A stretch of 64,000 bases of DNA from Chloroflexota bacterium (GTDB taxonomy: Bacteria; Chloroflexota; Dehalococcoidia; JACQUD01). The stretch covers positions 20,800 to 84,799 of the forward strand of contig JACQUD010000059.1 in NCBI GenBank assembly GCA_016210485.1, given 5' to 3'. The translations under genes and the position numbers were made by a program. Below, piece after piece: positions 4,112 through 55,852 of this stretch. Below the pieces are notes generated by a model, which had not been told where the DNA came from, did not search any database, and saw nothing but the letters and a program-made list of their open reading frames with translations. How positions within the stretch are numbered: the stretch's first letter is position 1; each line of letters begins with the position of its first letter.

Positions 4112-4201
<90 letters not shown>

Positions 4202-4728: not shown

Positions 4729-4818
4729 GGAGAGGTGCTGGAGTGGCCGAACAGGCACGCCTGGAGAGCGTGTAGGGGGGTAACCCCCTCGTGGGTTCGA
4801 ATCCCACCCTCTCCGCCA
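4729..4818 (+). tRNA. tRNA-Ser (anticodon GGA), long variable arm, encoded CCA
   Basis: Acceptor GGAGAGG/CCTCTCC, anticodon stem CACGC/GCGTG with loop CTGGAGA, extra arm GGGGGGTAACCCCCTC, T-arm identical to the other tRNA-Ser, G + CCA. Confidence 0.85.
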
Positions 4819-4928: not shown

Positions 4929-5447
4929 ATGAAGAGATTGTCCATCCTATCTCCGGCCTTGCTCGTCCTACTATCCCTAGCTTTAGCATCCGGCTGTCAG
5001 AGGCCCGGCACTTCTCCCAGCCCAACGGCAACGCCGACTCCACAAACAGCTTTGACGCCAAGGACTACACCAGCTGGGACGCCCAGCCCAACTCCAACGT
5101 CGACCCCAAAGGCCGCGCTAGCCGGAACGCCTAGCCCAACTCCAGTGCCGACGCCGATAGCGACGACTGTGCTCCCAAGCCCGACTCCAACACCACTCCC
5201 TTTGTTTCTCACCATTATGGAACCGGCAGATGGGAGCGTTGTTGAAGCAAGCTCCATTACCATACGGGGACAGACACTCCACGGAGTTGTCGTTAGCGTG
5301 AATGGCGAGCTGGTAGATGTGGACTCCAATGGTAACTTCTCCTGGCAGGTCGCCCTGGACGAAGGCTCCAATATCATTGACATAATTGCTAGCGACGAAG
5401 CTGGTAATGAAGTGACGGCCCAGCTCGTCGTGTCTTTTGCGCCGTAG
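4929..5447 (+). CDS. Secreted lipoprotein: signal peptide with lipobox LASGC, Pro/Thr-rich linker, C-terminal Ig-like/beta-rich domain
   Basis: MKRLSILSPALLVLLSLALASGC... followed by a long PT-rich tract and a non-repetitive C-terminal domain. Confidence 0.7.
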   Translation: MKRLSILSPALLVLLSLALASGCQRPGTSPSPTATPTPQTALTPRTTPAGTPSPTPTSTPKAALAGTPSPTPVPTPIATTVLPSPTPTPLPLFLTIMEPADGSVVEASSITIRGQTLHGVVVSVNGELVDVDSNGNFSWQVALDEGSNIIDIIASDEAGNEVTAQLVVSFAP

Positions 5448-5563
5448 TAGCGCCCCAACCAAACACCTCTATCGGCGTTATATATATAGAAGGGATGAAG
5501 AAGGGATACAGGAGGCTAGCATTCTGGTGTCCCTGGTGCGTCCAAGCCTAAAGGAGGTACAAA

Positions 5564-6367
5564 ATGAGACCCTTGATGAGAACTGCTTTGATGTTGGCCT
5601 TAGTGGCGGTGTTCGCTTTAGTCAGTGTGGGCGCTGCCCTGGCTCAAACGCCTGCCCCAAACCTCGAGGTGAAGGGGGCGATAAGTGCCATAGACAAGAC
5701 GGTGACGCCACCCACCGTGACTATCACGCCAAAGGAAGGCTCGCCCGTCACTCTGAAGATAGTAGCGAGCACCATAATCATAAAGGCTGGCTTGGGCAAA
5801 GCTAGCCTAGATGACTTGGCAGTGAACGATCGCGCTGTAGCTACCTATAACCAGACTAGCATGGAAGCAAGCAGGCTCGCAGTCAGTCAACCCATAGCGA
5901 AACACCACACCTTTGTGGGCACTATTAAGAGCAAGGCATCTGCCAGCTTCGTCGTAACCACGAAGCAGGGCGATGCGACTGTTAACGTCAATGCCCAGAC
6001 AAAATACAATGTCCCCGGGGTAAAGAACGCCACCTTGGCCAATTTCAAGGAAGGGGACAAGGTCGCTGTGCTGGCGGTGGAGACCTCTAGCGGCAACCTG
6101 GTGCTCCACGTTGTTCTAATCCCCGGCAAGCCAACTTTCATTCACCGCGTGGGGACTGTTGATGCCTACGTAGCAGGCACGAGCATTACGCTCAAGGATA
6201 AGAAAGGCGAGCTCTCCACTTTCATAGTAACCGCCGACACCAAGATAGTTTTGAAGAGGGGAGCTACGGCGGTGAGCATCGGTGAGCAAGCCATCGTCGT
6301 TGCCAGGCGGAACCCAGCGACCGACCAGTTCACTGCAATGTCCATCTTGGTCTTTGGCGCCAAATAG
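5564..6367 (+). CDS. Secreted hypothetical protein with signal peptide and three internal repeats (DUF5666-like)
   Basis: MRPLMRTALMLALVAVFALVSVGAALAQ signal peptide. Repeated ~60-aa units (…KAGLGKASLDDLAVNDRAVATY / …ATLANFKEGDKVAVLAV / …GATAVSIGEQAIVVARR). RBS aaaggagg. Confidence 0.7.
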   Translation: MRPLMRTALMLALVAVFALVSVGAALAQTPAPNLEVKGAISAIDKTVTPPTVTITPKEGSPVTLKIVASTIIIKAGLGKASLDDLAVNDRAVATYNQTSMEASRLAVSQPIAKHHTFVGTIKSKASASFVVTTKQGDATVNVNAQTKYNVPGVKNATLANFKEGDKVAVLAVETSSGNLVLHVVLIPGKPTFIHRVGTVDAYVAGTSITLKDKKGELSTFIVTADTKIVLKRGATAVSIGEQAIVVARRNPATDQFTAMSILVFGAK

Positions 6368-6390
6368 CTGAAATTCCAGAAGGAGCCTAA

Positions 6391-6425
6391 AAGTCAGGCT
6401 GGGCTAATATGGCCCAGCCTGACTT
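6391..6425 (+). terminator. Intrinsic-terminator-like hairpin after the secreted-protein gene
   Basis: Perfect 14-bp stem aagtcaggctgggc / gcccagcctgactt with loop taatat. The downstream tail is only weakly U-rich. Confidence 0.45.
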
Positions 6426-6494
6426 AACATCTGAGACTTTTCATCTAGATAATCCATGACCCGTCTCACATATAATAGATAGAAACTTTCCCCT

Positions 6495-6522
6495 TTGAAT
6501 TTATCTCGGCCTCTGCTATACT
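6495..6522 (+). promoter_or_regulatory. Candidate sigma-70-type promoter of purA (TTGAAT - 16 nt - TATACT)
   Basis: Hexamers read directly; located about 35 nt upstream of the purA ATG in an AT-rich stretch. Confidence 0.35.
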
Positions 6523-6554
6523 TCTTGGGGTTTTCAGATAAACAGGAGGATAGG

Positions 6555-7838
6555 ATGCCCGTAGTAGCGATTGTCGGCGGGCAGTGGGGGGATGAAGGTA
6601 AGGGTAAGGTTGTAGACCTCCTGGCGGAGCGGGCTCACATGGTGGTGCGCTACTCCGGAGGCAGCAACGCCGGCCACACCATCGTCAACGACCTGGGCAC
6701 CTTCCGTCTCCACCTCATTCCTTCGGGCATCTTCCACCCCAAGGTATCCTGCCTCATCGGCAACGGAGTGGCCCTGGATCCCGCAGTTCTCTTGAGGGAG
6801 ATAGAGGAGCTGACGGGCTGTGGCGTCAAAATGGGCCGGCTCTACATCAGCGACCGCGCCCACCTAGTGATGCCATATCACACTCTCATCGACAAGCTGG
6901 AGGAGGAGGCCAGGGGCGGCGGGGCCATCGGCACCACCCTGCGAGGGATAGGCCCTGCCTACGCCGATAAGATAGCTCGCCAGGGGCTGCGCACCTGCGA
7001 CCTCTTGAGCGAGAACGATCTCCGGCAGCAGCTGCGCCCAATCCTGGAGCAGAAGAACCGGCTTCTGGCCCGGCTCTACGAGGCGAATCCCCTGGACCTG
7101 GACGAGATAGCACAGCTCTATATCGAGTATGGCCACAAGCTGGCCCCCTACATCCGGGACACTGGGGAAATGGCGCGGCAGGCCGTGGCCTCGGGCCAGC
7201 GGATAGTGCTGGAGGGCGCTCAGGGTACCATGCTAGATGTTGACTTCGGCACCTACCCTTACGTCACCTCATGCTCACCCTCAATAGGTGGCGCCCTGAC
7301 CGGGCTGGGGCTGGCCCCATCCGCCATTGCCGAGGTCGTGGCGGTGTTCAAGGCCTATACCACCCGGGTGGGCAGTGGCCCCCTGCCCACGGAGCTGGCC
7401 GATGAGACGGGCCAGCTCATCCGGGAGCATGCCCAGGAGTTCGGGGCCACCACAGGTCGGCCCCGGCGCTGCGGCTGGTTCGATGCCGTGGTTGCCCGCT
7501 ACGCCGCCCAGGTCAACGGCTGCACCGCATTCGCCATAACCCGGCTGGATGTTCTGGATATCCTGCCCAAAATTAAGGTCTGCGTGAGTTATGAGGCGGA
7601 GGGCAAAAGGCTATCCCGACCCCCCGCCTCCACAGCCCTCATGGAGAGGTGCACCCCCATCTACGAGGAGATGGAGGGCTGGCGGGAGCCTATCACGGAC
7701 ATTCGCCGCTTCGCAGACCTGCCCAGGGCCGCCCAGGCCTACGTCCGCCGTCTGGAGGAGCTAACAGGCTGCCCCGCAGCCATTATCTCGGTGGGGCCGC
7801 GTCGGGAGGAGACAATAGAGGTCAGACCTCTGTTCTGA
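6555..7838 (+). CDS. purA: Adenylosuccinate synthetase
   Basis: MPVVAIVGGQWGDEGKGKVVDLL... P-loop and GHTIV motif. RBS aggagga before ATG at 6555. The track ORF started upstream at 6495. Confidence 0.95.
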   Translation: MPVVAIVGGQWGDEGKGKVVDLLAERAHMVVRYSGGSNAGHTIVNDLGTFRLHLIPSGIFHPKVSCLIGNGVALDPAVLLREIEELTGCGVKMGRLYISDRAHLVMPYHTLIDKLEEEARGGGAIGTTLRGIGPAYADKIARQGLRTCDLLSENDLRQQLRPILEQKNRLLARLYEANPLDLDEIAQLYIEYGHKLAPYIRDTGEMARQAVASGQRIVLEGAQGTMLDVDFGTYPYVTSCSPSIGGALTGLGLAPSAIAEVVAVFKAYTTRVGSGPLPTELADETGQLIREHAQEFGATTGRPRRCGWFDAVVARYAAQVNGCTAFAITRLDVLDILPKIKVCVSYEAEGKRLSRPPASTALMERCTPIYEEMEGWREPITDIRRFADLPRAAQAYVRRLEELTGCPAAIISVGPRREETIEVRPLF

Positions 7839-12654: not shown

Positions 12655-13521
12655 TTACTTCTCTCTGCAATAGATTTCCCCTGTCTTCGAAGCAAGCGAA
12701 ACCCTGTCAAGCAGCAGCTCTTCAAGACTGTGTCTTCCCTCCAGTACCAACACGATGTCTTGACCATCCAAGAGTATGATTTTTTGTTCCTTGCCCTCTT
12801 TCAGCGCTTCAACTGCACCCGTGGAATAGCCATTAACCGAAATAAAGAACCCACTTGCGATATGGAACTTTCCTTCGACTTTACCTCGAAACTCATACAA
12901 TGGAGCCGTCGAAACAGGCTTGTCTGTCCAAGTAGCCTCAACCAAGAAGATGTTACTACCAAGCCAGAAGCTGCCATCGATCTGTTCACCCCTCGTATTG
13001 AAAGGCGCGCCCATCTTCAGCCCAAACGCACTCCAAAGCTCCTGCAAGAAATCCTGGAAGCGATAGCCTCGCTTCTGATGATCAGATTCCGCGATAATGC
13101 TTCTAAATGAATCATTCAGTTGAGCAAATTGGGCGGCCGTCTCTACTGCCTTGTCTTTGTCACTAGCCTTACCTGGCTGTCCCTTGCTTTCTGTCACCTT
13201 CTCCCGCACCAGCACATCCAAATTGGTAGCTACGCGACTGCTCTCATTCAGCCATTTATGCATTGCAACCACGCAACGTGTGTTTCCCGTGTTTACGAGG
13301 TCTCGCAACACTCCGTCGACCACAGCGCGCTTGGAAGGTCCATAAACCCATGCCAAGCCCTTCTTTTGAGAAACGGGATACCGAGCGATAATATTGGCTG
13401 GGACACCACAATCCCGGAAAAATGTTCTTAATTCACGGTGCGATAGCTGGACAAGCTGTGTGCTCAAAAATTGAATCAGTTGATATTCCTGGTCCGTGAG
13501 CATTCTAGCCTGCTTGTCCAT
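12655..13521 (-). CDS. Restriction-endonuclease-like protein: N-terminal domain of unknown function fused to C-terminal Mrr-cat (PD-(D/E)xK) nuclease domain
   Basis: C-terminal ~150 aa match the Mrr catalytic domain layout (…EQIDGSFWLGSNIFLVEATWTDKP… ILLDGQDIVLVLEG). GC is clearly lower than flanks. Start taken at MDKQ (13521) with RBS ggagagggaagg; the track ORF extends into the carA-derived repeat. Confidence 0.65.
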   Translation of the reverse strand: MDKQARMLTDQEYQLIQFLSTQLVQLSHRELRTFFRDCGVPANIIARYPVSQKKGLAWVYGPSKRAVVDGVLRDLVNTGNTRCVVAMHKWLNESSRVATNLDVLVREKVTESKGQPGKASDKDKAVETAAQFAQLNDSFRSIIAESDHQKRGYRFQDFLQELWSAFGLKMGAPFNTRGEQIDGSFWLGSNIFLVEATWTDKPVSTAPLYEFRGKVEGKFHIASGFFISVNGYSTGAVEALKEGKEQKIILLDGQDIVLVLEGRHSLEELLLDRVSLASKTGEIYCREK

Positions 13522-13532
13522 GACCTTCCCTC

Positions 13533-13585
13533 TCCACAAACCTCTGGAGCACATACACATTGTCCAGGGGGCCAGGGGAGGCCTC
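13533..13585. repeat. Direct repeat copy 1 (degenerate duplicate of the carA 3' end), left boundary of the VapBC cassette
   Basis: ctccacaaacctctggagcacatacacattgtccagggggccaggggaggcctc versus 14251..14303, about 4 mismatches in 53 bp. Confidence 0.75.
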
Positions 13586-13598
13586 CATCCGCTCCATG

Positions 13599-13988
13599 TC
13601 AGGCACTCTCCGCCCCGTGCAGCTTCACGCCCGGGATAGTCTGGAAGTGGCGATCCAAGGCAAATATGGTGCCGTCATTCTCTATGGCCAGGGCAGCCAC
13701 CAGCAGGTCTGTGAGCGGTATCAGGCGACCCCGGTTGCGTAGATGAAAAGCCATCTCCCCAGCCCTGGCCCAGGTATCCTGAGTTGCCTCCATATAGGGT
13801 AAGGCCCGCAGCACGCCCTCCAGCCGCAACCTTTCTCCCTCAGTGCGCGCACCTTGGAGCACCTCCGCCAGAACCACCCCCACCATTGAAACCTCCCCTT
13901 GCCTCAAAAGGTTGCCCACCGCCTGGCCCTCTGGCGAATCCGGCGATCTGAGAAAAGGGACCCAGGCTGAGGTGTCGACGATTACCAC
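13599..13988 (-). CDS. vapC: PIN-domain ribonuclease toxin VapC
   Basis: MVIVDTSAWVPFL... PIN acidic residues. Overlaps the upstream antitoxin by 7 nt. Confidence 0.85.
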   Translation of the reverse strand: MVIVDTSAWVPFLRSPDSPEGQAVGNLLRQGEVSMVGVVLAEVLQGARTEGERLRLEGVLRALPYMEATQDTWARAGEMAFHLRNRGRLIPLTDLLVAALAIENDGTIFALDRHFQTIPGVKLHGAESA

Positions 13989-14194
13989 TGCATCTCCTTG
14001 AGCTCCAACTCCTCCAGCTCTCTCCAGTTATCCACCAGGTCAACCTTGCCGGCCATACTGAAGAGCTCGTCGATCTTTTTGTTACGGAGATACTCCTCCA
14101 GAGCCTTGTTCACCGCCTTGCTCTTGCTCTTCTCCTTGGTGAGCTTGGTAACCTCTTCAACGAGCCTCTCATCCAACTCCAGAGTTGTGCGCAT
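13982..14194 (-). CDS. vapB: Type II antitoxin VapB (Rv0623/COG4423-like)
   Basis: MRTTLELDERLVEEVTKLTKEKSKSKAVNKALEEYLR... typical antitoxin N-terminus, 70 aa, coupled to vapC. Confidence 0.8.
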   Translation of the reverse strand: MRTTLELDERLVEEVTKLTKEKSKSKAVNKALEEYLRNKKIDELFSMAGKVDLVDNWRELEELELKEMQW

Positions 14195-40062: not shown

Positions 40063-40153
40063 TTACTTAGGGATATATGAACGCCGAAGGATTGGGGGGT
40101 CTTTCCATATATCTAACCCCTGGGCGATGGCCCTACCTATTTGGGAATGTTAA

Positions 40154-41668
40154 CTAGCTGTCGTTTCTTTTCTCAAAGTTTCGCAGGGTTTTATCCAGTT
40201 TATCTGAAGAAACATCCTCTTCTTCTGCATCAGCAGATTCTTTGGGTACGAACGAATCGCTGGAAACGCGCCGCAATCCGGGGTTAAGTTGCGTAGCAAA
40301 CGTAAGGCTACCGGACGATACAACTTTGCGGTATTTCCCAAGCTCACCTGTAATTACTGTAAGATGAACAGGCTTGCCTGTCTCCTTGAATTTTCTCTCC
40401 ACAATCTCAGCCACGGCATCGAACAAAGGTATTGACGGATGCTCATAACCCCATTCTGTTAGGGCAAATTTGCCTTTGACACCAATCCAAACCATGCCGT
40501 GCTGCTCGCGGCTCAGCACAGCGTGAATGTTACGTTCGGAGGACGGGTCATCCGGAAACATTGAATTGTAAACTAAGGAAATCTCTGAATAGTGCGCTGG
40601 TCTCCCGATGTGTCGAAGTACGGTATATACTTTTTGGGCCTTAGTTACGCGACTCCATACGGGTTGAGTTGCACTCTCAGCAAGAGTCTTAACGTCATTG
40701 GCCAGAAGGCACAGATTGCCTTTGGAATCTAAAAACTTCGCTATTGACTCTGGGTCAACTTCGTGCGGGTGCCATTCCCAAGGTCCGAGTTCCTGGACAT
40801 CCTTTGACGAAGCCCCTAAGATCACGATTTTTAGCTCGGGTAGCTCCGCAATGGGAATGCCCGCGCATTTGGCGGCGAATCTCCTGAGAGATGCCTGCAA
40901 AGAATCAGTGACGACAACAAGACTACCCTCTGCGCGCATAACATCACATAAGAATGCGCGGAGAAACACCCTGCGATTGTAACGCTGTATGAACCTTTTT
41001 CGCGCCTTATCCTCTAATTGGCGAACTCTCTCTCTGGTAACTCCAAGCCAACTACCAATCTCTTCAAGAGTCATTCTTCTCTCTACGCCGAAGCCTTCTC
41101 TAGCTAGCACAACTTGAACAAGTCTCCGTTCGAGTTTGGAAAGCGCTTCTCCGAGTGCTTCCTCTAACGGCTGGTTCAAGGCAGTAGCACGTACTTCAAT
41201 GTCTGCCAAGCTTTTCAGCAACTTGGTGGCATCTTCAAGGGCGAACAGTGATAAGTAGGAGAGAATATGTGCCAAGGGAAAGCAGTATTGGGCGGGTGTC
41301 CAAGCAGGGCCTACAAATCCGAAGCGCTCCCCAAAGTGCAAAGCCTCCTTCGAGAAAAATTCCCAACGACCAGTGGGGCGCAGGGAATTCATGAGACGCG
41401 TTAACTCACGTTCCGTCAGCCTTGCTTTGTGCGCCTGTGCCATTCTAATGTTCAGGCTGACAAACCACAGAAAGAGAGTTTTCTCTGGGACGAACCAATC
41501 CTCCTTCTCTCGACACAACGAAATATACCGAGAATCGTTAGCGAGAGCGCGTCGCACTGTCTCAGTGTCGATGTCTGATTGTGTGTAGTCAACAACTTCC
41601 GAAACGCTCAAGGCGTACGGCCGTGATGCGAAGGTTTCCAGAGTCTGAGCAATATGCTGCGTATCCAT
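40154..41668 (-). CDS. Sigma-70 region-4 HTH protein with C-terminal HARE-HTH-like winged helix (504 aa); island-1 component
   Basis: Central RRMTLEEIGSWLGVTRERVRQLEDKARKRF is a classic sigma-70 r4 HTH. C-terminal …KVYTVLRHIGRPAHYSEISLVYNSMFPDD…MVWIGVKGKFALTEWGY fits the HARE-HTH pattern. Low GC (~45-50%). Confidence 0.65.
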   Translation of the reverse strand: MDTQHIAQTLETFASRPYALSVSEVVDYTQSDIDTETVRRALANDSRYISLCREKEDWFVPEKTLFLWFVSLNIRMAQAHKARLTERELTRLMNSLRPTGRWEFFSKEALHFGERFGFVGPAWTPAQYCFPLAHILSYLSLFALEDATKLLKSLADIEVRATALNQPLEEALGEALSKLERRLVQVVLAREGFGVERRMTLEEIGSWLGVTRERVRQLEDKARKRFIQRYNRRVFLRAFLCDVMRAEGSLVVVTDSLQASLRRFAAKCAGIPIAELPELKIVILGASSKDVQELGPWEWHPHEVDPESIAKFLDSKGNLCLLANDVKTLAESATQPVWSRVTKAQKVYTVLRHIGRPAHYSEISLVYNSMFPDDPSSERNIHAVLSREQHGMVWIGVKGKFALTEWGYEHPSIPLFDAVAEIVERKFKETGKPVHLTVITGELGKYRKVVSSGSLTFATQLNPGLRRVSSDSFVPKESADAEEEDVSSDKLDKTLRNFEKRNDS

Positions 41669-41681
41669 AGTAGCAGATCGG

Positions 41682-42164
41682 TTAGACGGGAAAATCGCCC
41701 TTCAAGAGCCTTTCAGCAACCTTGCGCGTCCCCTTTTCGCAACGCCCCCAGTTTAATGAGGAGGGGATGAGTTCTTCTTTTACTAAATAGCGACGCAAGA
41801 TAACCACCTTCTCGAGCCATTTTCGCTTTACACCCAGGTCTCGAACTAGATGGTCGTAAAACCCGTCTATCTGAAGTGATATATGTTCTAGGTTGTCTCT
41901 TAGCCCAAACATAGTATCTCCGAGCTGCCAGATCTTTCTGGCAGGCGTAGGCGTATGATTCTTCCTAAACGCCTGTATCTCCGCTAACAACAGACGCATT
42001 GTTCTAATAGAGCGCGAATACGAATCAGCAGCGTTTTGCAAAACAGAACTTGGATCACTTTCCATTGAGATGATCCCATCAATAGAGAGAAACGCCATGA
42101 ATACTCCATCTCTAGGTTCAAAACACACAAAGGTCAGCTTGGGCGAGGTCACCTTTTCCCCCAA
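41682..42164 (-). CDS. Small partner protein (160 aa) of GHKL ATPase copy 1; paralog of 54573..55043
   Basis: Overlaps the GHKL gene by 16 nt. Alignable to the copy-2 partner (…IWQLGDTMFGLRDNLEH…LVRDLGVKRKWLEKVVILRRYL… vs …IYWLAGDEILSFLRRMDDLG…LARDVGVHESLLKRVISFRRRF…). Possible C-terminal HTH. Confidence 0.6.
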   Translation of the reverse strand: MGEKVTSPKLTFVCFEPRDGVFMAFLSIDGIISMESDPSSVLQNAADSYSRSIRTMRLLLAEIQAFRKNHTPTPARKIWQLGDTMFGLRDNLEHISLQIDGFYDHLVRDLGVKRKWLEKVVILRRYLVKEELIPSSLNWGRCEKGTRKVAERLLKGDFPV

Positions 42165-43675
42165 GCAGCCATCATTTTATCTAGGAACATAAGGTCTTGG
42201 GCCTCGCCCTCGCCAGCTAAGAATCTCTGGATGGCACTTCCTATGGCAAAAAGACTGTGGAGCCTTCTTGCTGTGCTATCGGTTCGAGCTTTCACATAGG
42301 ACGGATGCCCACTATTGATAACTACGCTATTGCCGTCCACCCAGGCTAAGTCCACTCTGGTAGGAGCTTCGGCGAAGGCGATTTTGGGACCTCGGCGTCC
42401 TGTTCGGCTGATGGGGGCAGCCGTCTCGTTTCCCTTCTCTTGATTTTGAACAAGCGCTTCGCCAGGCTCATTTCCTACATCGACAGGACTTGGGCCGTCT
42501 CCTCCGTTGCCTTCCCCGATGGGGAAAGTCTCCTCGGTCCCTTCTTGGATATCGGCTTTGATTGGGCCGCTATCGTTAGCTTGGAGAACGTCCTTCTTGG
42601 CGCGAAACCCAAAGAAATCTGCTAGCTCCGGAACATCTTTCACGAGCTTCTTAAGCTCCCGTTCTAGCTTCTCCGCTTCATCCGTACCTCCAATATCCAA
42701 AGACTGGATGCCCAGTGCTGCTAGCCAATTCTTGAACTCCACTCGAACAGGGTTATATAGACTTTCGAATTCTCTATGTTTCCCACGGCCACGGATAAAG
42801 TCCGTCTTAGCCGTGGTCAAGAAGTTAACAAATTTGGGAATCTCCACCAATCCGAAGATCCTCGGCCCAAGACTTCCCGGAAATTGATTAAAGAGGTCTG
42901 CTTTAATGACCTTGCCATAGGTGCACAGCAAAACACCACAAACATCTCCCCCGGCCGGGTACTCGGACGCAGCCAGGCCGAGAACGCCATAGCCTATCCT
43001 TTTGCCAACTCTAGTAGGGAAGAATTTCTTAACCATATCGAGGCTGAAGTCCCTCTCTATGTTACTAGGTATGACGGCCTGTCCGTTGACAGTGAATCTG
43101 AGATCGCTGGGGTAGTAGCCCATGCTCTTGTACAAGTCTAGGAACTGCATATCCAGAAGGGGAAGGTAGTGGTGGCGCAATAGTTTGATTAAGTCCTCAG
43201 ATGAAGAATACGAGACTCTTGTTTCTGCCCCAAATCTCACTTCTACCCTCGTGCCAGTTCCTGATAGATGCGTAGGTTGGATATCCTCCCATAACAGTTT
43301 TCTCTTCGACTCCAAATGCCAATTAGAACCACTAGAAAACATTTCACTGCGGGTCTCAGTGATCACCCTGTCCGAAATATTGAAGCTAATCTTTGCACCA
43401 ACACCGGCAAAGCCTATGCCTGTTCCTCGGGTCTTAAGACCAGCGGCGAAATCGTGGTACTCCTTGAACTGCGAATCGGTCATACCCTTGCCGTTATCGG
43501 CTACAACAAGGACTCTGTGATCAGTGTCATAAGAGATAGAAATACGTGATGCTCTAGCATCCAGAGCATTAGCCACGAGTTCCACAAACACTATCTCAGC
43601 TACTTCAAACGGGTACATTTCGGCTAAATCCCGAATCAGATTTTGGAAGTTCACGCTACTTTCGTGTGTACCCAT
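42149..43675 (-). CDS. GHKL (Bergerat-fold) ATPase of the MORC/MutL/Hsp90 class, copy 1 (508 aa)
   Basis: Motif I ELVANALDA, G1 DNGKGM, G2 GTGIGFAGVGAK, MutL/Hsp90-like GTGTRVEV. C-terminal acidic/Gly linker then …VVINSGHPSYVKA…. Start at internal ATG 43675 (RBS gagga), consistent with promoter TTGACT-18-TATACT at 43741..43770; the track ORF extended upstream. Confidence 0.75.
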   Translation of the reverse strand: MGTHESSVNFQNLIRDLAEMYPFEVAEIVFVELVANALDARASRISISYDTDHRVLVVADNGKGMTDSQFKEYHDFAAGLKTRGTGIGFAGVGAKISFNISDRVITETRSEMFSSGSNWHLESKRKLLWEDIQPTHLSGTGTRVEVRFGAETRVSYSSSEDLIKLLRHHYLPLLDMQFLDLYKSMGYYPSDLRFTVNGQAVIPSNIERDFSLDMVKKFFPTRVGKRIGYGVLGLAASEYPAGGDVCGVLLCTYGKVIKADLFNQFPGSLGPRIFGLVEIPKFVNFLTTAKTDFIRGRGKHREFESLYNPVRVEFKNWLAALGIQSLDIGGTDEAEKLERELKKLVKDVPELADFFGFRAKKDVLQANDSGPIKADIQEGTEETFPIGEGNGGDGPSPVDVGNEPGEALVQNQEKGNETAAPISRTGRRGPKIAFAEAPTRVDLAWVDGNSVVINSGHPSYVKARTDSTARRLHSLFAIGSAIQRFLAGEGEAQDLMFLDKMMAAWGKR

Positions 43676-43740
43676 GTTATCCTCGTTTAGATAATTCAAA
43701 ATATGACAATTTAAACCGTCGGACACCCGCTCCCGGGGCC

Positions 43741-43770
43741 AGTATAAGCCCGCCCCGAAAGCAGAGTCAA
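43741..43770 (-). promoter_or_regulatory. Candidate promoter of GHKL module 1 (TTGACT - 18 nt - TATACT, minus strand)
   Basis: Hexamers read on the minus strand about 65 nt upstream of the GHKL ATG. Confidence 0.4.
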
Positions 43771-43836
43771 TTGTTTGCGATGAGGGTTGGAATGGGATAT
43801 ATCCCAAAATGCCCTGACGGGCGCAAAATGGGGAGA

Positions 43837-48968: not shown

Positions 48969-49207
48969 TTGACCCCATTATAAGTACCTTGTGGGGTATT
49001 GTAAAGGCCTGGGTAGAGAGTCCTGGACAACATCTGCCGTTCACACTCACCTGAAATTGAGACCATAAAGCTTTGCCCCCGGCCCTAATGTTTGGAGTGG
49101 AGGCCTCAAAAGCATGGCTGTGAGGGAAGAAAAACCCCTCTGATGACTCTATATGGGACAAAAGTGATACCAGCCTGGGTGATGTCAAGAGAAAGGGAGA
49201 AGGCTTA

Positions 49208-49585
49208 ATGTATATAGAGAAACTGCTCAGGCTATCAAATATAGCTACGGAAGTGGATAAACATCAGGAGTCTGAGGTGGCAGGTAAAAAATTGCTAGTC
49301 AGCGACCCTAACCGGCAGCTTGTCATCCTGTATATTTTTATACGCTGCCCCTTCGAACGCTACGATAGTAGTAGGTGCTATAACGCAATGAACAGCCTGG
49401 AGATACCCGGTGTTGCCCCTGCCACAGCTTTGAGCGAAGCCCACGTTGCCATCATCAGGGTTCAGCTTTGTTGCCGGGCATACTCGGGAGATCAATCTAG
49501 ACAGACCTTGCTTCAAAGGCCAGCAGCTCGATTTGATCCTGATATGATGAGAGTCTTCCTTCGCTTTCTGGAGTCTCGAGGTTAA
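49208..49585 (+). CDS. Questionable 125-aa ORF in the low-GC spacer (possibly non-coding)
   Basis: Good RBS aagggagaagg-5nt-ATG, but the product is Cys/Arg-rich with no recognisable features. Confidence 0.2.
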   Translation: MYIEKLLRLSNIATEVDKHQESEVAGKKLLVSDPNRQLVILYIFIRCPFERYDSSRCYNAMNSLEIPGVAPATALSEAHVAIIRVQLCCRAYSGDQSRQTLLQRPAARFDPDMMRVFLRFLESRG

Positions 49586-49625
49586 AGCTCCCACGAGAGC
49601 ATTTCCTTGACCCTCCCCCCCTCCG

Positions 49626-50105
49626 GTGCTATCATGGCGGCGAGGAGTTGCCTTGTTCCCCTGGAGAGTGAATGTTTATGTAGCTGATAGCTTCCAGGGC
49701 CTGGTGAAGGCAGCCCGGCTGCGGAAGGTAGCGGCTAAAACTTTGGAGGCCTATGGTGGTGGGAGGCCGGGGAAGACGAGCCTGGCCATCGTAGGGGACG
49801 AGGAAATGCGTCGGATGAGCAAAGCTAGCCGGGGCCTGGACGAGGTAACCGATGTCCTTTCTTTTTCTTTTGAGGCGGGGGATTTCCCCCGCCGACCTCG
49901 CTCCCTGCCTCTCCTGGGCGAGGTAGTGCTTTGCTATCCCCAAGCGGAGCGCCAGGCACGAGAGATGGGACATCCAGTGGAGCGCGAGCTTTCTGTCCTG
50001 GTCATCCATGGCGTCCTCCATCTGCTGGGCTACGACCATGAAAAAGAGGCTGATGCGGAGTCTATGACGCAGGCCGAGGCCCATGCCCTGGCCCTCTTGA
50101 GTTAA
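49626..50105 (+). CDS. ybeY: rRNA maturation endoribonuclease YbeY
   Basis: C-terminal HGVLHLLGYDHEKE zinc-binding motif. Exact start uncertain (GTG 49626 or downstream). Confidence 0.82.
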   Translation: MLSWRRGVALFPWRVNVYVADSFQGLVKAARLRKVAAKTLEAYGGGRPGKTSLAIVGDEEMRRMSKASRGLDEVTDVLSFSFEAGDFPRRPRSLPLLGEVVLCYPQAERQAREMGHPVERELSVLVIHGVLHLLGYDHEKEADAESMTQAEAHALALLS

Positions 50106-52045: not shown

Positions 52046-52651
52046 GTGGAGAAGGGCGGCGCGGCACCTCCCATCGCCCGGCTCATGGCGGAGCTGACCA
52101 GGCTGCCAGGCATCGGCCCCAAGACCGCCGCCCGGCTCACCTATCACCTCCTGCGCCGACCCAAGGAGGAGGCCCAAGCCCTGGCCGAGGCCATCGTCGC
52201 CCTTAAGGAGCAGACCGTCCTCTGCTCCCGCTGCCAGAACCTATCCCAGGCCGACCCCTGCCCCCTGTGCTCTAGCCCGGAGCGGGACGGAGGCCTCATC
52301 TGCGTGGTGGAGGAGCCTCTGGATATCCTGGCCCTGGAGCGCACCGGTCGCTACAAGGGCCTGTATCACGTCCTCCACGGGGTGCTGTCGCCCCTGAACG
52401 GCGTCGGCCCCGACGACCTGAAGGTTCAGGAGCTTGTGGAGCGTTTGAAGGGGGGTGGGGTGAGGGAGGTCATCCTGGCCACCAACCCCAACGTGGAGGG
52501 CGAGACCACCGCCCTCTACCTGCACCGGCTTCTCCTGCCCCTGGGGGTGCGGCTGACCCGCCTGGCCCGGGGCCTGCCCATGGGGGCCGACCTGGAATAC
52601 GCCGACGACGTTACCCTGACCCAGGCGTTAGAGGGGAGACGGGAGTTTTAG
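52046..52651 (+). CDS. recR: Recombination protein RecR
   Basis: …LPGIGPKTAARL… HhH, Cys4 zinc finger CSRCQN…CPLC, Toprim. Confidence 0.95.
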   Translation: MEKGGAAPPIARLMAELTRLPGIGPKTAARLTYHLLRRPKEEAQALAEAIVALKEQTVLCSRCQNLSQADPCPLCSSPERDGGLICVVEEPLDILALERTGRYKGLYHVLHGVLSPLNGVGPDDLKVQELVERLKGGGVREVILATNPNVEGETTALYLHRLLLPLGVRLTRLARGLPMGADLEYADDVTLTQALEGRREF

Positions 52652-52693
52652 GAGAAGAAGTCTCGGATGTTGGTCGGAAGAGTCTCACGCCCC

Positions 52694-52921
52694 TTATTTT
52701 AACCTGACGAAGACCTTCTCCCCTTTGGTCATAACTCGAATTTCCTTGCCCAAATTCTTAGCAACCTTGCGATAGAGATGGGATACTTTTCTCGGGGTAT
52801 CTCGGCCCGTAGGTGTTACCTCTATGGCATTATCAGAGCTTAACTGGTTAAGAAATTGTTCTGCTTCACGCTCTCCCGGTCTCTTCTTTAGCTCAGAAAG
52901 AGCAACGATACGTGTCCTCAT
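52694..52921 (-). CDS. Small basic hypothetical protein (75 aa), divergent from GHKL module 2
   Basis: ATG at 52921 with strong RBS aggagg-5nt. Lys/Arg-rich; possible DNA-binding regulator. Low GC. Confidence 0.5.
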   Translation of the reverse strand: MRTRIVALSELKKRPGEREAEQFLNQLSSDNAIEVTPTGRDTPRKVSHLYRKVAKNLGKEIRVMTKGEKVFVRLK

Positions 52922-52934
52922 TGTGTCCTCCTAT

Positions 52935-52963
52935 TTGACATTCGTATGTCTCCATGTTAGCAT
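52935..52963 (+). promoter_or_regulatory. Candidate promoter of GHKL module 2 (TTGACA - 17 nt - TAGCAT)
   Basis: Hexamers read directly, about 90 nt upstream of ATG 53053. Confidence 0.4.
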
Positions 52964-53052
52964 CTTTTTTGTAAGTAATCAAGGGTATTTTGGAGCTTAT
53001 AGAGATAAGCTTAAGGGCATTGCCCATAGAGGTAGTTGAGTGTAGGTGTCTT

Positions 53053-54585
53053 ATGGGTGAAACTCGGGTAAACCTGAAGCATCTTCTGGAGAACTTAAGG
53101 GACTCATATCCATTGCCTTTAGAAGAGGCCATCGTTACCGAGTTAGTAGCTAATGCCCTTGATTCCAAAGCTTCGAGGATTGGCTTTACTGTAGATTCAG
53201 GTGAGTGCTCATTGTCAATTGTGGATAATGGCGCGGGGATGAAACGCGAAGAGTTCGAGAAGTATCACGATATTGCTGAGACCACTAAGGAAAAAGGACG
53301 AGGGATAGGATTTGCCGGCCAGGGTGCCAAGTTGTCTTTGTTGGCAGTAAGGTCGGTGCAGACGGAAACGAAGACAAGTGAGGGGTCCTTTTCCACTGCG
53401 TGGCATCTTGAAGATGACTATCATGCCCCTTGGGATTTTATTCCTCCTTTGGGCCTTGTTGGTACACAGACAGGGACAGCAATCAAAGTTCTTCTGAGAG
53501 AAAAACAAAGCGATCTGGCAAATTCGACTTTCGTGATTAGGACTATTCAGAAATGGTTTGCTTCCCTCTTAGAAAAGGATTTCATGCCCAAAGCCCTTAG
53601 AGAAGTGTACCCAAGCGGAGTCTTTTTCGGCGTAAATGGGAGGATGGTGGAGCTATCCCAAAGTTCGGTGTTTCATGACTTTGCCACTGGCTATAAGCTC
53701 AGGCCTTTTGAAGTGCGACTTAAAAGGAAGCAGGTAGGAATTGGATTCCTTGGAAGAAGTATCCGCTCTTTGAAAGAGGAGGAAAGGGGCCTGGCGATAT
53801 CTGTGTTGGGTAAGGTCGTAAAGCGGGGTTGGGAGTGGGTGGATGTTTCTCCGAAAGACCGCAAGTTCATATGGGGCATGGTTGAAGTCCCCGCTCTCTC
53901 CACAATTCTTGCGACAAACAAATGCGACTTCTTGTCCGACGTGTCGAGCAAGACAAAGTATTACCAGTATCGCAAGGCTATTGTTGTGGCCATACAGCCC
54001 ATCCTACGTGCCATGGGCGAGTTGCCTGAGGCTGAGCCTGAAGCGCTACCGCAAGCGTTGGCAAAAGAAATCCGAATGGTCCTTGAGGAACTTCTGCCCG
54101 ATTTCCCTGAGCTGGAACCACTTTTGGATAAGCAGGGACGAGGGGAAAAGGTTAGCACGGTTCTGCCCGACCCTGCTGCCGATCCGGCAGGGGGCGTGGA
54201 GCAAGGGGTGGCTAGTGTAACTGGAGACCAGGGAGGGGTTGGGCAAGGAGCGGGAGTTGATGTTGGGCCAGGCACGGGGCCTGGTGAAAGGATTTCCCCA
54301 GAAGCTCCGCTTACAGAACCAGGTAGGCAGCATGAGGGAAGGCGCAGGCTTCCTGGGCTTATGATCCGCTATGAAGACAAACTAGAGGAAGAACTAGGGC
54401 GATTGGAAGGAATTACCATATTCATAAATAAGGGGCATCCTGCTTACAGAAAAGTTGCCGACTCAAAAAGCCTGGAGAATTACCATACTTTTCTAACGAT
54501 AGCTTGGGTGTTGTCAAAAAACCTTGCTGATGGAAGGTCTCCCCAGGGATTCATAAATCAGTTCCTTAGGATTTGGGGGGGTTAA
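53053..54585 (+). CDS. GHKL (Bergerat-fold) ATPase of the MORC/MutL/Hsp90 class, copy 2 (paralog of 42149..43675)
   Basis: ELVANALDS, DNGAGM, GRGIGFAGQGAK, GTAIKV. Gly/Pro/acidic linker then …ITIFINKGHPAYRKV…. Collinear with copy 1 over the full length at roughly 25-30% identity by eye. Alternative TTG start at 52990. Confidence 0.75.
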   Translation: MGETRVNLKHLLENLRDSYPLPLEEAIVTELVANALDSKASRIGFTVDSGECSLSIVDNGAGMKREEFEKYHDIAETTKEKGRGIGFAGQGAKLSLLAVRSVQTETKTSEGSFSTAWHLEDDYHAPWDFIPPLGLVGTQTGTAIKVLLREKQSDLANSTFVIRTIQKWFASLLEKDFMPKALREVYPSGVFFGVNGRMVELSQSSVFHDFATGYKLRPFEVRLKRKQVGIGFLGRSIRSLKEEERGLAISVLGKVVKRGWEWVDVSPKDRKFIWGMVEVPALSTILATNKCDFLSDVSSKTKYYQYRKAIVVAIQPILRAMGELPEAEPEALPQALAKEIRMVLEELLPDFPELEPLLDKQGRGEKVSTVLPDPAADPAGGVEQGVASVTGDQGGVGQGAGVDVGPGTGPGERISPEAPLTEPGRQHEGRRRLPGLMIRYEDKLEEELGRLEGITIFINKGHPAYRKVADSKSLENYHTFLTIAWVLSKNLADGRSPQGFINQFLRIWGG

Positions 54586-55043
54586 TCATGGGGGATAAGT
54601 TTCCGCTCATCGTATCGCCAGAAAAAGATTCCAAGGGTGAGTTCAAGGTTGCAACCTCTTTTCAAACTCTGCTGGACGCATCTCGAAGCGTGCGCAAGGA
54701 CTTAGAATATGTTGAACAAGACTATGCGCTTTTGATAAGTAACCTTCGCTGTTTGCTCATTAGAAGTGGCACGAGTGGAAGGCGAGACCCGCGTATTTAC
54801 TGGCTTGCCGGAGATGAAATATTAAGCTTCCTTCGACGTATGGATGATTTGGGCTTTTTTCTACATCAACAGAATAAAACGCTGGCAAGAGATGTGGGAG
54901 TACATGAAAGCTTGCTCAAAAGGGTTATCTCATTTCGCAGGCGCTTTCCGCTTCTTTCTCAGGTTGACCCTTCTATCTTGTGGACTAGATACAGGAGCAA
55001 TGCAGTCCCGCTACCCGGGAGCGAAAAAGATCAAGGTGTTTAG
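54573..55043 (+). CDS. Small partner protein (156 aa) of GHKL ATPase copy 2; paralog of 41682..42164
   Basis: Overlaps the GHKL gene by 13 nt. Alignable to the copy-1 partner. Ends at the recO start. Confidence 0.6.
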   Translation: MGGLIMGDKFPLIVSPEKDSKGEFKVATSFQTLLDASRSVRKDLEYVEQDYALLISNLRCLLIRSGTSGRRDPRIYWLAGDEILSFLRRMDDLGFFLHQQNKTLARDVGVHESLLKRVISFRRRFPLLSQVDPSILWTRYRSNAVPLPGSEKDQGV

Positions 55044-55852
55044 TGCCCCGCCCCCGCACCTATAAGACCGAGGCCATCGTGCTGAAGGCCGCCCGCCTGG
55101 GGGAGGCCGACAGGCTCCTCACTATGTTCACCCCCTCCCTGGGCAAGGTGCGGGCCGTGGCCCGGGGCGCCCTCCGCCCCAAAAGTAAGCTGGCCGGCCA
55201 CCTGGAGCCTTTCACCCGCGCTTCCCTCATGCTGGCCCAGGGCCGCACCCTGGACGTGGTCGCCGGCGCCCAGGCCCTGGAGGCCTTCCCCACACTCCGC
55301 GCCGACCTGGAGCGGACGGGCCTGGCCTTCTACCTGGCCGAGCTGGTGGACCGCTTCACTGCCGAGGGCCAGGAGAGCTATCCCATATACGCTTTGCTTC
55401 TGGAGGCCCTGGGCTGGCTGGACAAGGCTCAGAAGGTGGGCCTGGCCCGCCCAGCCTTCGAGCTTCAAGTGCTCCGGCTCTCGGGGCATGGCCCCCAGCT
55501 ATCCCATTGCCTGAAGTGCCGAGCCGAGATAAAGGGCGCTGCCGCCTTCTCGTCGGCCTCCGGCGGGGCGCTCTGCCCTATCTGTGAGAGAGATGCCCCC
55601 GATGCCCGCCCCCTCTCCATCGCCGCTCGCCGGGCCATGGTCTATCTCCAGGGCAGCGCCTTCTCCCGGGGGGCCAGGGTCAAGGTGCCCACAGCAGTGG
55701 AGCGGGAGATGGAGGGGCTGCTCCAGGGATACATAGCCTACGTGCTGGAGCAGAGCGTCAAATCGGCGATCTTTTTGGAGCGGCTGAGGCGGGAGGACGT
55801 CAGCGCTGCCGCTGCACCGAATAGTCGGCCATATCCAGAAGGGCCTGCCTGA
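55043..55852 (+). CDS. recO: DNA repair protein RecO
   Basis: (GTG) PRPRTYKTEAIVLKAARLGEADRLLTMFTPSLGKVRAVARG… OB-fold plus zinc-binding CLKC…CPIC. Confidence 0.88.
   Translation: MPRPRTYKTEAIVLKAARLGEADRLLTMFTPSLGKVRAVARGALRPKSKLAGHLEPFTRASLMLAQGRTLDVVAGAQALEAFPTLRADLERTGLAFYLAELVDRFTAEGQESYPIYALLLEALGWLDKAQKVGLARPAFELQVLRLSGHGPQLSHCLKCRAEIKGAAAFSSASGGALCPICERDAPDARPLSIAARRAMVYLQGSAFSRGARVKVPTAVEREMEGLLQGYIAYVLEQSVKSAIFLERLRREDVSAAAAPNSRPYPEGPA

Follow-up and report, generated by a model that had tools for sequence, protein, structure and literature searches.

The locus analysed here raises the question of why three tightly packed genes of low GC content lie amid GC-richer neighbours, and whether, as an earlier note on this DNA proposed, they form a defence system with an ATPase and a partner as its core and a variable DNA-binding protein as its accessory. 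Within the window, the whole 64-kb stretch of Chloroflexota DNA that was analysed, the relevant features are as follows:

40063..43836, minus strand: low-GC islet containing the whole cassette (GC 0.49 versus 0.61 in the flanks; GC3 0.50 versus 0.75-0.85)
43770-43741, minus strand: promoter-like TTGACT-18-TATACT, 66 nt upstream of the gene A ATG
42149..43675, minus strand: gene A, 508-aa GHKL ATPase of the MutL/MORC/Hsp90 class, as judged from its motifs
43166..43600, minus strand: predicted Bergerat ATP-binding domain of A (aa ~26-170)
41682..42164, minus strand: gene B, partner of 156-160 aa whose translation is coupled to that of A
40154..41668, minus strand: gene C, 504-aa multi-winged-helix protein, predicted to bind DNA
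40934..41173, minus strand: sigma-70 region 4 (4.1 and 4.2) of C (aa ~166-245; PF04545, E 1e-9)
40448..40642, minus strand: putative HARE-HTH-type winged helix of C (aa ~343-407; from hhalign)
53053-55043, plus strand: copy 2 module, comprising A2 (53053-54585) and B2 (54573-55043), between recR and recO

The islet is delimited by the stop codons of an HI0933-like gene (40062) and a DUF1786 gene (43837), and the identities previously given to these flanking genes, an HI0933 flavoprotein and a DUF1786-like protein, were upheld by profile matches (HI0933_like, E 1.6e-86; DUF1786, E 1.5e-72). Its GC content per kb over 40-44 kb is 0.49-0.51, low as had been claimed, but the 6 kb on each side average about 0.61 rather than 0.65. 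The per-gene composition check suggested earlier gave GC3 values of 0.50-0.52 for genes A, B and C, against 0.75 for the HI0933-like gene and 0.85 for the DUF1786 gene. The three tightly packed minus-strand ORFs at 40154-43675 were likewise confirmed. The maximal ORF of gene A spans 42149..43807 on the minus strand, and its start was placed at the ATG at 43675, which has GAGGA upstream and yields a protein of 508 aa (homologues, 506-509 aa); it ends in TGA at 42151-42149. The reported 16-nt overlap between A and B holds if B starts at the TTG at 42164, but the GTG at 42152, giving a 4-nt GTGA overlap, is more probably the start because it fits homologues beginning MTS. Gene B stops at TAA (41684-41682), and the gap that separates it from the gene C ATG at 41668 is 13 nt, not 14.

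The promoter-like TTGACT-18-TATACT is indeed present, correctly placed and the best match of the region (10/12), but three such sites were observed against 3.4 expected from shuffles; since the count equals the shuffle expectation, the site is no evidence on its own. The 260 nt upstream are unrelated between loci, and neither a conserved operator nor element ends were found there. A 9-nt border repeat, GGGATATAT (40070-40078) and ATATATCCC (43797-43805), was considered as candidate element ends and rejected because its chance expectation is about 0.1 (an estimate) and 39 inverted pairs of similar size occur. No tRNA gene or Rfam element was found at the islet, and the cassette contains no transposase or integrase and has no conserved ends.

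By its sequence, gene A is a GHKL (Bergerat-fold) ATPase, as the earlier note had recognised, and all its catalytic motifs are intact. PF13589 (E 9e-13) and PF02518 (E 9e-8) both match above their gathering scores, and motif I (E32, N36, D39), motif II (D60, G62, G64), the lid at G84-K95 (GIGFAGxGAK, motif III) and motif IV (G141-T142) are invariant across the subfamilies represented by the cassette and by copy 2. Profile matches in the PDB (MutL, MORC2 and Hsp90) extend only over positions ~26-170, with MutL and MORC2 closest in sequence and a resemblance of the GHKL domain to sacsin as well as Hsp90. Homologues are numerous (n = 748, 60-77% identity), and mean identity reaches 66% across domains of life. 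Residues 170-508 gave no match in Pfam, NCBIfam, PADLOC or the PDB, and a truncated profile of this C-terminal part returned a best E of 0.79 against the PDB; DUF4263 was not matched in gene A at E<=10. This 340-aa portion could hide a catalytic site, its stretch 420-508 containing the invariant residues N454, H457, Y460 and K462, and its invariant G254-K255..K258 could represent the phosphate-sensing lysine. Gene B, translationally coupled to A in all loci, has a confidently predicted structure (~157 aa) consisting of a beta-hairpin and helices, for which no convincing structural match was obtained, the DNA-binding domain of ParB (ParB/Spo0J-type HTH) being among the folds compared, and nothing significant was found in Pfam, NCBIfam or PADLOC.

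The predicted structure of C consists of winged helices in series, with a C-terminal helix at 488-503, and no enzyme fold, nuclease included, was found in it. The sigma-70 region 4 claimed for this protein was detected by PF04545 in 34/34 family members and matches region 4 of SigA/RpoD proteins in the PDB (E 2.5e-18); against Thermus SigA region 4 (E 1e-11), GVTRERVRQLEDKA aligns with GVTRERIRQIENKA, and T211, E213, R216 and Q217 are invariant in the family. Judged from these alignments, C carries a region 4 of the primary-sigma type with a near-identical -35 recognition helix. Region 2 (PF04542) is absent from all 34 members, region 3 is matched marginally in one member, and the PDB matches are to region 4 only; a sigma-70 family sigma factor was ruled out for C, which has region 4 without region 2. 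The assignment of a C-terminal HARE-HTH fared less simply and is supported only indirectly. Direct Pfam scanning with PF05066 identified it in 0/34 C family members at E<=0.1, but hhalign of the C family against a family of sigma4+HARE-HTH proteins gave 99.8% probability (E 8e-30), with C residues ~345-406 aligned onto the stretch called PF05066 in these relatives (E 1e-11 to 3e-16), and the predicted model places a winged helix at residues 343-403. This putative HARE-HTH is the best-conserved part of C (mean pairwise identity 0.59-0.64). The N-terminal and middle segments gave nothing significant in Pfam, NCBIfam or PADLOC and are the most variable regions of the protein; this, together with a conservation gradient that runs from A (0.66) through B (0.58) down to C (0.41), is as expected for a sensing subunit. 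Some relatives of C swap in or add modules related to nucleic acids or RNA polymerase, including Mrr_N (P0062) and repeats of the RpoA C-terminal domain (P0026, P0068).

The gene order A-B-C, with genes that overlap or abut, is invariant in 28/28 distinct loci examined (24 + 4). These loci come from at least 10 phyla of bacteria and archaea, with hosts that include Dehalococcoidia, Nitrospiraceae, WOR-3, a delta-proteobacterium, Phycisphaerae, Armatimonadetes, Fermentithermobacillus, Atribacteria, Caldisericota, Bathyarchaeia and Methanospirareceae, all of them uncultured MAGs. Cassette GC lies below flank GC in 20/22 distinct loci, by up to 0.25. That the cassette is compositionally foreign and has spread horizontally is thus supported by the sequences, and it was absent from 50,697 phage genomes and 72,556 plasmids and effectively absent from IMG/VR.

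Copy 2 had been taken as evidence that C is a variable accessory to a core of ATPase and partner. A second module without C does exist, but A2 shares only 28% identity with A (full length, E 3e-50) and B2 22% with B (E 3e-5), and comparison of the sequences indicates that copy 2 belongs to a separate subfamily, a two-gene module everywhere sampled; its family was found in metagenomes by an alignment-based scan. Copy-2 alleles of differing composition occupy the recR/recO site, and among the copy-2-type loci a ResIII helicase follows the gene pair in L036 only. Within the three-gene subfamily C follows A-B in every complete locus; it is therefore obligatory, and the variable-accessory interpretation does not stand.

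The suggestion of a defence system finds support in part of the neighbourhoods. About one-third of the sampled loci adjoin R-M, GmrSD, AbiE, MADS or Gabija-like genes. L113 neighbours a type I R-M system, GmrSD, AbiEi/AbiEii and an integrase; L115, a patatin and GmrSD/Schlafen; L116, a type IIG Eco57I/MmeI enzyme and IS110; and L005, a tRNA, PIN, ParB and a methylase, while GTDB flanks include MADS or Gabija/OLD-like matches. Housekeeping genes surround the remaining loci, among them the one in the window, L001 and the majority of the GTDB loci, so that the defence-island signal is partial, and the unusually strong conservation of A for a defence protein is a further point against this reading. 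Nuclease, helicase and methylase genes are neither present in the cassette nor consistently beside it in the 28 loci, no TIR or other effector domain is recognisable in A, B or C, and PADLOC system models do not match the cassette. The trio is not described, named or assigned a function in the papers and libraries searched.

Taken together, we give an even chance to the reading that the islet is a mobile chromosomal cassette encoding an uncharacterised GHKL-centred, nucleic-acid-directed conflict system (anti-phage or anti-mobile-DNA), the defence component of which is made plausible by association with defence genes only. In such a system C would act as the targeting or sensing subunit, reading a -35-like sequence and, through a HARE-HTH, base modification (the domain has been proposed as a reader of modified DNA; PMC10853773, PMC11037411), and/or docking on RNA polymerase at the usual site of sigma region 4. 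A and B would form an ATP-driven dimerising clamp that is recruited or released by C. With no effector recognisable, whether nuclease, helicase, methylase, TIR or another, such a system would most likely clamp or compact its target DNA at the expense of ATP, or block transcription, rather than cleave DNA. A more specific proposal, which we consider distinctly unlikely, is that region 4 of C, a faithful copy of the domain with which the primary sigma factor binds promoter and flap, serves as a bait or docking device at RNA polymerase in a nuclease-free form of immunity guarding or exploiting the transcription machinery. As a bait, region 4 might be a decoy for phage proteins of the AsiA or G1 ORF67 type, which appropriate sigma or act as anti-sigma factors, and their binding might trigger the A-B ATPase; as a docking device, it might lodge in RNA polymerase or at -35 elements, with the GHKL clamp shutting off the transcription of invading DNA.

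The same protein architecture would also suit a non-immune transcription or nucleoid module, a mobile regulatory or chromatin unit at the service of the host or of an element, in which C would act at -35-like sites as a transcription factor of the sigma-region-4 type or as a nucleoid protein, under the control of A-B as an ATP-dependent remodeller or chaperone. C consists of DNA-binding modules only, its recognition helix resembles the one in primary sigma factors, its distant relatives are standalone sigma4+HARE-HTH proteins named RNA polymerase delta-like, and the strong conservation of A, the likeness of its GHKL domain to Hsp90 and sacsin, and the many loci among housekeeping genes all fit such a role. 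A core function is nevertheless difficult to reconcile with the patchy phyletic spread and foreign composition, defence genes recur beside about one-third of the loci, and the lack of conservation in the upstream regions leaves no common operator evident; we consider this explanation unlikely.

The compactness, self-containment and horizontal mobility of the islet, together with its tight translational coupling, also evoke a selfish addiction module of toxin-antitoxin type that harms cells losing the cassette, with no specific role against invaders, and TA or Abi genes adjoin the cassettes of L003, L005 and L113, while different copy-2 alleles occupy the same recR/recO position. The proteins of the cassette (508 and 504 aa for A and C) are large and complex, unlike typical TA pairs, and show no known toxin fold, and there is neither an internal transposase or integrase nor a pair of conserved ends, making this interpretation improbable. 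Highly improbable, in our view, is that the cassette controls an adjacent immune operon as CapK/CapS, CapW/BrxR or CapH/CapP do, as might be imagined from its combination of a GHKL protein with winged-helix proteins and from the R-M, GmrSD or Abi genes directly adjoining it in L113, L115 and L116. The adjacent systems vary by locus, solitary cassettes largely contradict this role, and 3.6 kb would be large for a regulator. What defines CapK/CapS is the presence of STAS domains alongside a GHKL kinase of the SpoIIAB-like type (PMC13373217); identity with this pair was rejected, given that A, B and C gave no STAS match, no SpoIIAB-like kinase was found and the model of B is a beta-hairpin with helices.

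Should the conflict-system reading be correct and the cassette prove to be immune, it would exemplify a type of immunity whose recognisable activities do not go beyond the hydrolysis of ATP by a clamp of the MutL/MORC class and the binding of DNA or RNA polymerase. Bacteria and archaea would then possess an equivalent of the MORC-style silencing of eukaryotes, distinct from cleavage-based restriction, and a defined task could be assigned both to the HARE-HTH and to a region 4 separated from the rest of sigma. Being small (3.6 kb), self-contained and highly conserved, the cassette is easy to synthesise and test, and B and the 340-aa C-terminal part of A constitute new structural targets.

Several known systems share one or more of these components. 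In VcSduA, a GHKL-fused Shedu whose anti-phage activity is validated, the GHKL domain serves for regulation or as a clamp, but VcSduA is a single-gene system with a C-terminal DUF4263 PD-(D/E)xK nuclease (PMC12137116), and the lack of DUF4263 in A ruled out Shedu as an identity for the cassette. Mza (MzaA, sigma-70-like, with a MutL-like ATPase; NF041931) likewise combines a region-4 protein and a GHKL ATPase in a defence setting, and MzaA is the best NCBIfam match for region 4 of C (E 2.4e-14; PADLOC, E 2.2e-8). This match reaches 53 bits where the cut-off is 800 and covers only the C-terminal 80 residues, no Mza ATPase model matches A, and the cassette has three genes only; it was not accepted as Mza. 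The standalone sigma4+HARE-HTH proteins (~350 aa, P0069-P0081) are homologous to C over residues 168-473, from region 4 through a linker and the HARE-HTH to the next winged helix, but lack the 165-aa N-terminal module of C. Some sources name these proteins RNA polymerase delta subunit; the genuine delta subunit (RpoE) combines a HARE-HTH at its N-terminus with a long acidic tail and lacks region 4. GHKL ATPases of the MORC/paraMORC type have been tied to R-M-like systems by comparative genomics (Iyer, Abhiman & Aravind 2008, PMC2292703), and resemble A in their N-terminal HATPase_c_3-type Bergerat domain with intact motifs, their family-specific conserved C-terminal extension, and their scattered occurrence and lateral mobility among bacteria and archaea. 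The S5-fold transducer that follows the GHKL domain in MORC/paraMORC proteins would lie in A beyond about residue 170, where no sequence match was obtained. In the MORC/paraMORC families the defining feature is a linked SF2 helicase, nuclease or DNA methylase, or a fused nuclease or TIR (PMC2292703), whereas the cassette dispenses with nuclease and helicase, and its only constant partners throughout the 28 loci are B and the sigma4/HARE-HTH protein C.

The three minus-strand open reading frames described in the earlier note are present in the window, and their order is maintained wherever it can be followed.

42149..43675, minus strand: gene A, GHKL ATPase
42151-42149, minus strand: TGA stop of A, overlapped by the start of B
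41682..42164, minus strand: gene B
40154..41668, minus strand: gene C

Each of the 24 distinct loci for which sequence suffices has the arrangement A-B-C, its genes overlapping or abutting, as do four more contigs. Its hosts are uncultured MAGs from at least 10 phyla, Bathyarchaeia and Methanospirareceae among them. The GC of the cassette varies between 0.31 and 0.64, partly following that of the host, and lies below the flanks in 20/22 distinct loci (by at least 0.04 in 14), indicating repeated transfers, many old enough for partial amelioration; we therefore infer that purifying selection, rather than recent spread, accounts for the mean identity of 66% in A. The cassette was not found in phage and plasmid collections and is effectively absent from IMG/VR.

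The maximal ORF of A reaches a TTG at 43807; an ATG at 43675 with GAGGA just upstream gives 508 aa, in agreement with several hundred homologues of 506-509 aa. The 16-nt A/B overlap reported previously holds if B starts at TTG 42164; the alternative GTG at 42152, in a GTGA overlap, suits the homologues because these open with MTS.... Between the B stop and the ATG of C (41668) we count 13 nt, not 14. Per-kb GC is 0.49-0.51 over 40-44 kb, bearing out a low-GC islet, but that of the flanks is ~0.61 rather than the ~65% claimed. GC3 of A, B, and C is 0.50-0.52, versus 0.75 and 0.85 in the adjoining HI0933-like and DUF1786 genes, which flank the islet as proposed. The promoter-like TTGACT-18-TATACT exists and is well positioned, but such sites are no commoner than in shuffled sequence, and none of the terminators, tRNAs, or Rfam elements searched for marks the islet. 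A 12-nt intergenic palindrome upstream of A (GGGATATATCCC, 43797-43808) and a half-site just downstream of C (TTAGGGATATAT, 40067-40078) place a 9-12-nt inverted repeat at both borders (~0.1 expected by chance); the other loci showed nothing comparable. Elsewhere in the window there are milder GC dips at 5000-7000, 13001-14000, and 49001-50000 (0.54-0.56 vs ~0.61), and two tRNA-Ser genes (4112-4199 and 4729-4818) separated by 530 nt.

A second A-B pair (copy 2) bears on the suggestion that C is a variable accessory.

53053-55043, plus strand: A2-B2 pair between recR and recO, without C

The copy 2 ATPase forms its own subfamily (36-52% identity to ~40 cluster representatives) within a superfamily of only 134 representatives at E<=1e-30 among 1.84 billion. 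Most complete loci of its nearest relatives (42-51% identity) carry an A-B pair, none has a C-like ORF, and the genes following such copy-2-type pairs are unrelated (RecO, ResIII helicase, TPR protein, ComEC). These pairs without C argue that A-B is the ancestral core and that C, contrary to that suggestion, is a constant member of the three-gene set in one subfamily. In the copy-2-type locus L036 (7967-10459), and similarly in L035, an 830-aa ResIII/SWI2-SNF2 SF2 helicase directly follows A-B with a 4-nt overlap, an arrangement recalling MORC-helicase linkage (Iyer et al. 2008). With regard to window 52046-55852, metagenome contig L032 (1155-11500) is syntenic with window 49.6-60.8 kb, at amino acid identities of 85% (dnaX), 83% (ybaB), 86% (recR), and 64% (recO). 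The A2-B2 pair at its recR/recO junction is only ~50% identical to that of the window and native in composition (GC 0.62-0.65, GC3 0.76-0.81, vs 0.47-0.50 and 0.46-0.49); because one site carries compositionally different alleles, the junction may be a hotspot with replacement, rather than a case of simple vertical descent. More distant A-like proteins (~528 aa) occur without B. On metagenome contigs L050-L111, the ATPases of a third A-like clade (~525-530 aa; identity to copy 2, 36-40%) are followed by neither a B-like nor a C-like ORF; L062, L064, L075, and L099 have in common a downstream run of ORFs of 193, 214, 201, and 240 aa.

Pfam places a HATPase_c_3 Bergerat domain in A, and solved-structure profiles match MutL, MORC2, and Hsp90, covering only positions ~26-170. 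Since Bergerat motifs I-IV are invariant even in the divergent copy 2, A is expected to bind and hydrolyse ATP. The other 340 residues are strongly conserved (mean pairwise identity 0.56-0.68), with zero matches in Pfam and PDB. In the complete genome of Candidatus Fermentithermobacillus carboniphilus (CP062796.1; L021, 8001-9533), A is broken into ORFs of 128 and 326 aa beside intact B and C, probably a pseudogene or sequencing frameshift.

The sigma-70 region 4 attributed to C is firmly supported by profile evidence: PF04545 was detected in 34/34 members, the family profile matches primary sigma factors (E 2.5e-18), a single-sequence alignment pairs GVTRERVRQLEDKA with GVTRERIRQIENKA of Thermus SigA, and T211, E213, R216, and Q217 are invariant. 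A sigma factor proper is ruled out, region 2 being absent. The proposed HARE-HTH escapes Pfam (0/34 members) but is supported indirectly by profile-profile alignment with ~350-aa sigma4+HARE-HTH proteins (99.8% probability, E 8e-30, 289 columns), residues ~345-406 falling on the stretch that Pfam scores there as PF05066. Conservation in C peaks in this block and the winged helix after it, and is lowest in residues 246-340 and the first 165 residues. Among relatives of C, P0062 has Mrr_N where the HARE-HTH region would be, P0026 and P0068 have 2-3 RpoA C-terminal-domain repeats before region 4, P0012 has zinc ribbons, and P0007 (721 aa) joins C to a GHKL N-terminal domain, possibly through an assembly artefact.

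We give a conflict or defence function for the cassette about an even chance, any single mechanistic step being much less probable than that reading as a whole. C, built of DNA-binding modules with the -35-reading helix intact, would target DNA and/or RNA polymerase; A-B would work as an ATP-gated clamp; and the output would be DNA clamping or transcription blocking, on the model of MutL/MORC-type clamps (PMC2292703) and of the modification-reading role proposed for HARE-HTH (PMC10853773, PMC11037411). The same DNA-binding make-up could belong to a non-immune transcription or nucleoid module, which we consider unlikely. No nuclease, helicase, methylase, or TIR domain is recognisable in the cassette. 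The starts and stops of A and B are coupled and the three genes are inherited together; that they form an addiction module is quite improbable.

Genes found with the cassette in individual loci
L113: classic defence island; type I R-M, GmrSD, AbiEi/AbiEii, integrase
L115: classic defence island; patatin, GmrSD/Schlafen
L116: classic defence island; type IIG enzyme, IS110
L005: classic defence island; tRNA end, PIN, ParB, methylase, M78 regulator
L114: phage-like genes

This association with defence genes, drawn from individual examples, is suggestive, and neighbourhoods are mixed: in most GTDB loci, as in L001 and the window itself, the cassette adjoins plain metabolic or translation genes. 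We give very little probability to a role in regulating adjacent immune genes, which is contradicted by the loci where the cassette is solitary and by the absence of STAS domains, the defining feature of CapK/CapS.

No PADLOC system model matches the cassette, no description of the A-B-C trio was found in the literature searched, and B and the C-terminal part of A have no assignable fold or family. Identity with GHKL-Shedu was rejected, as DUF4263 is absent. A MutL-like ATPase is common to the cassette and to paraMORC-type and Mza-type systems, and Mza also shares a protein with sigma region 4; however, the cassette lacks the helicase, nuclease, or methylase linkage of the paraMORC type, and MzaA matches C over only 80 residues, scoring 53 bits where the cut-off is 800, which places the cassette outside both. 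We class the cassette as a putative GHKL-centred conflict system.
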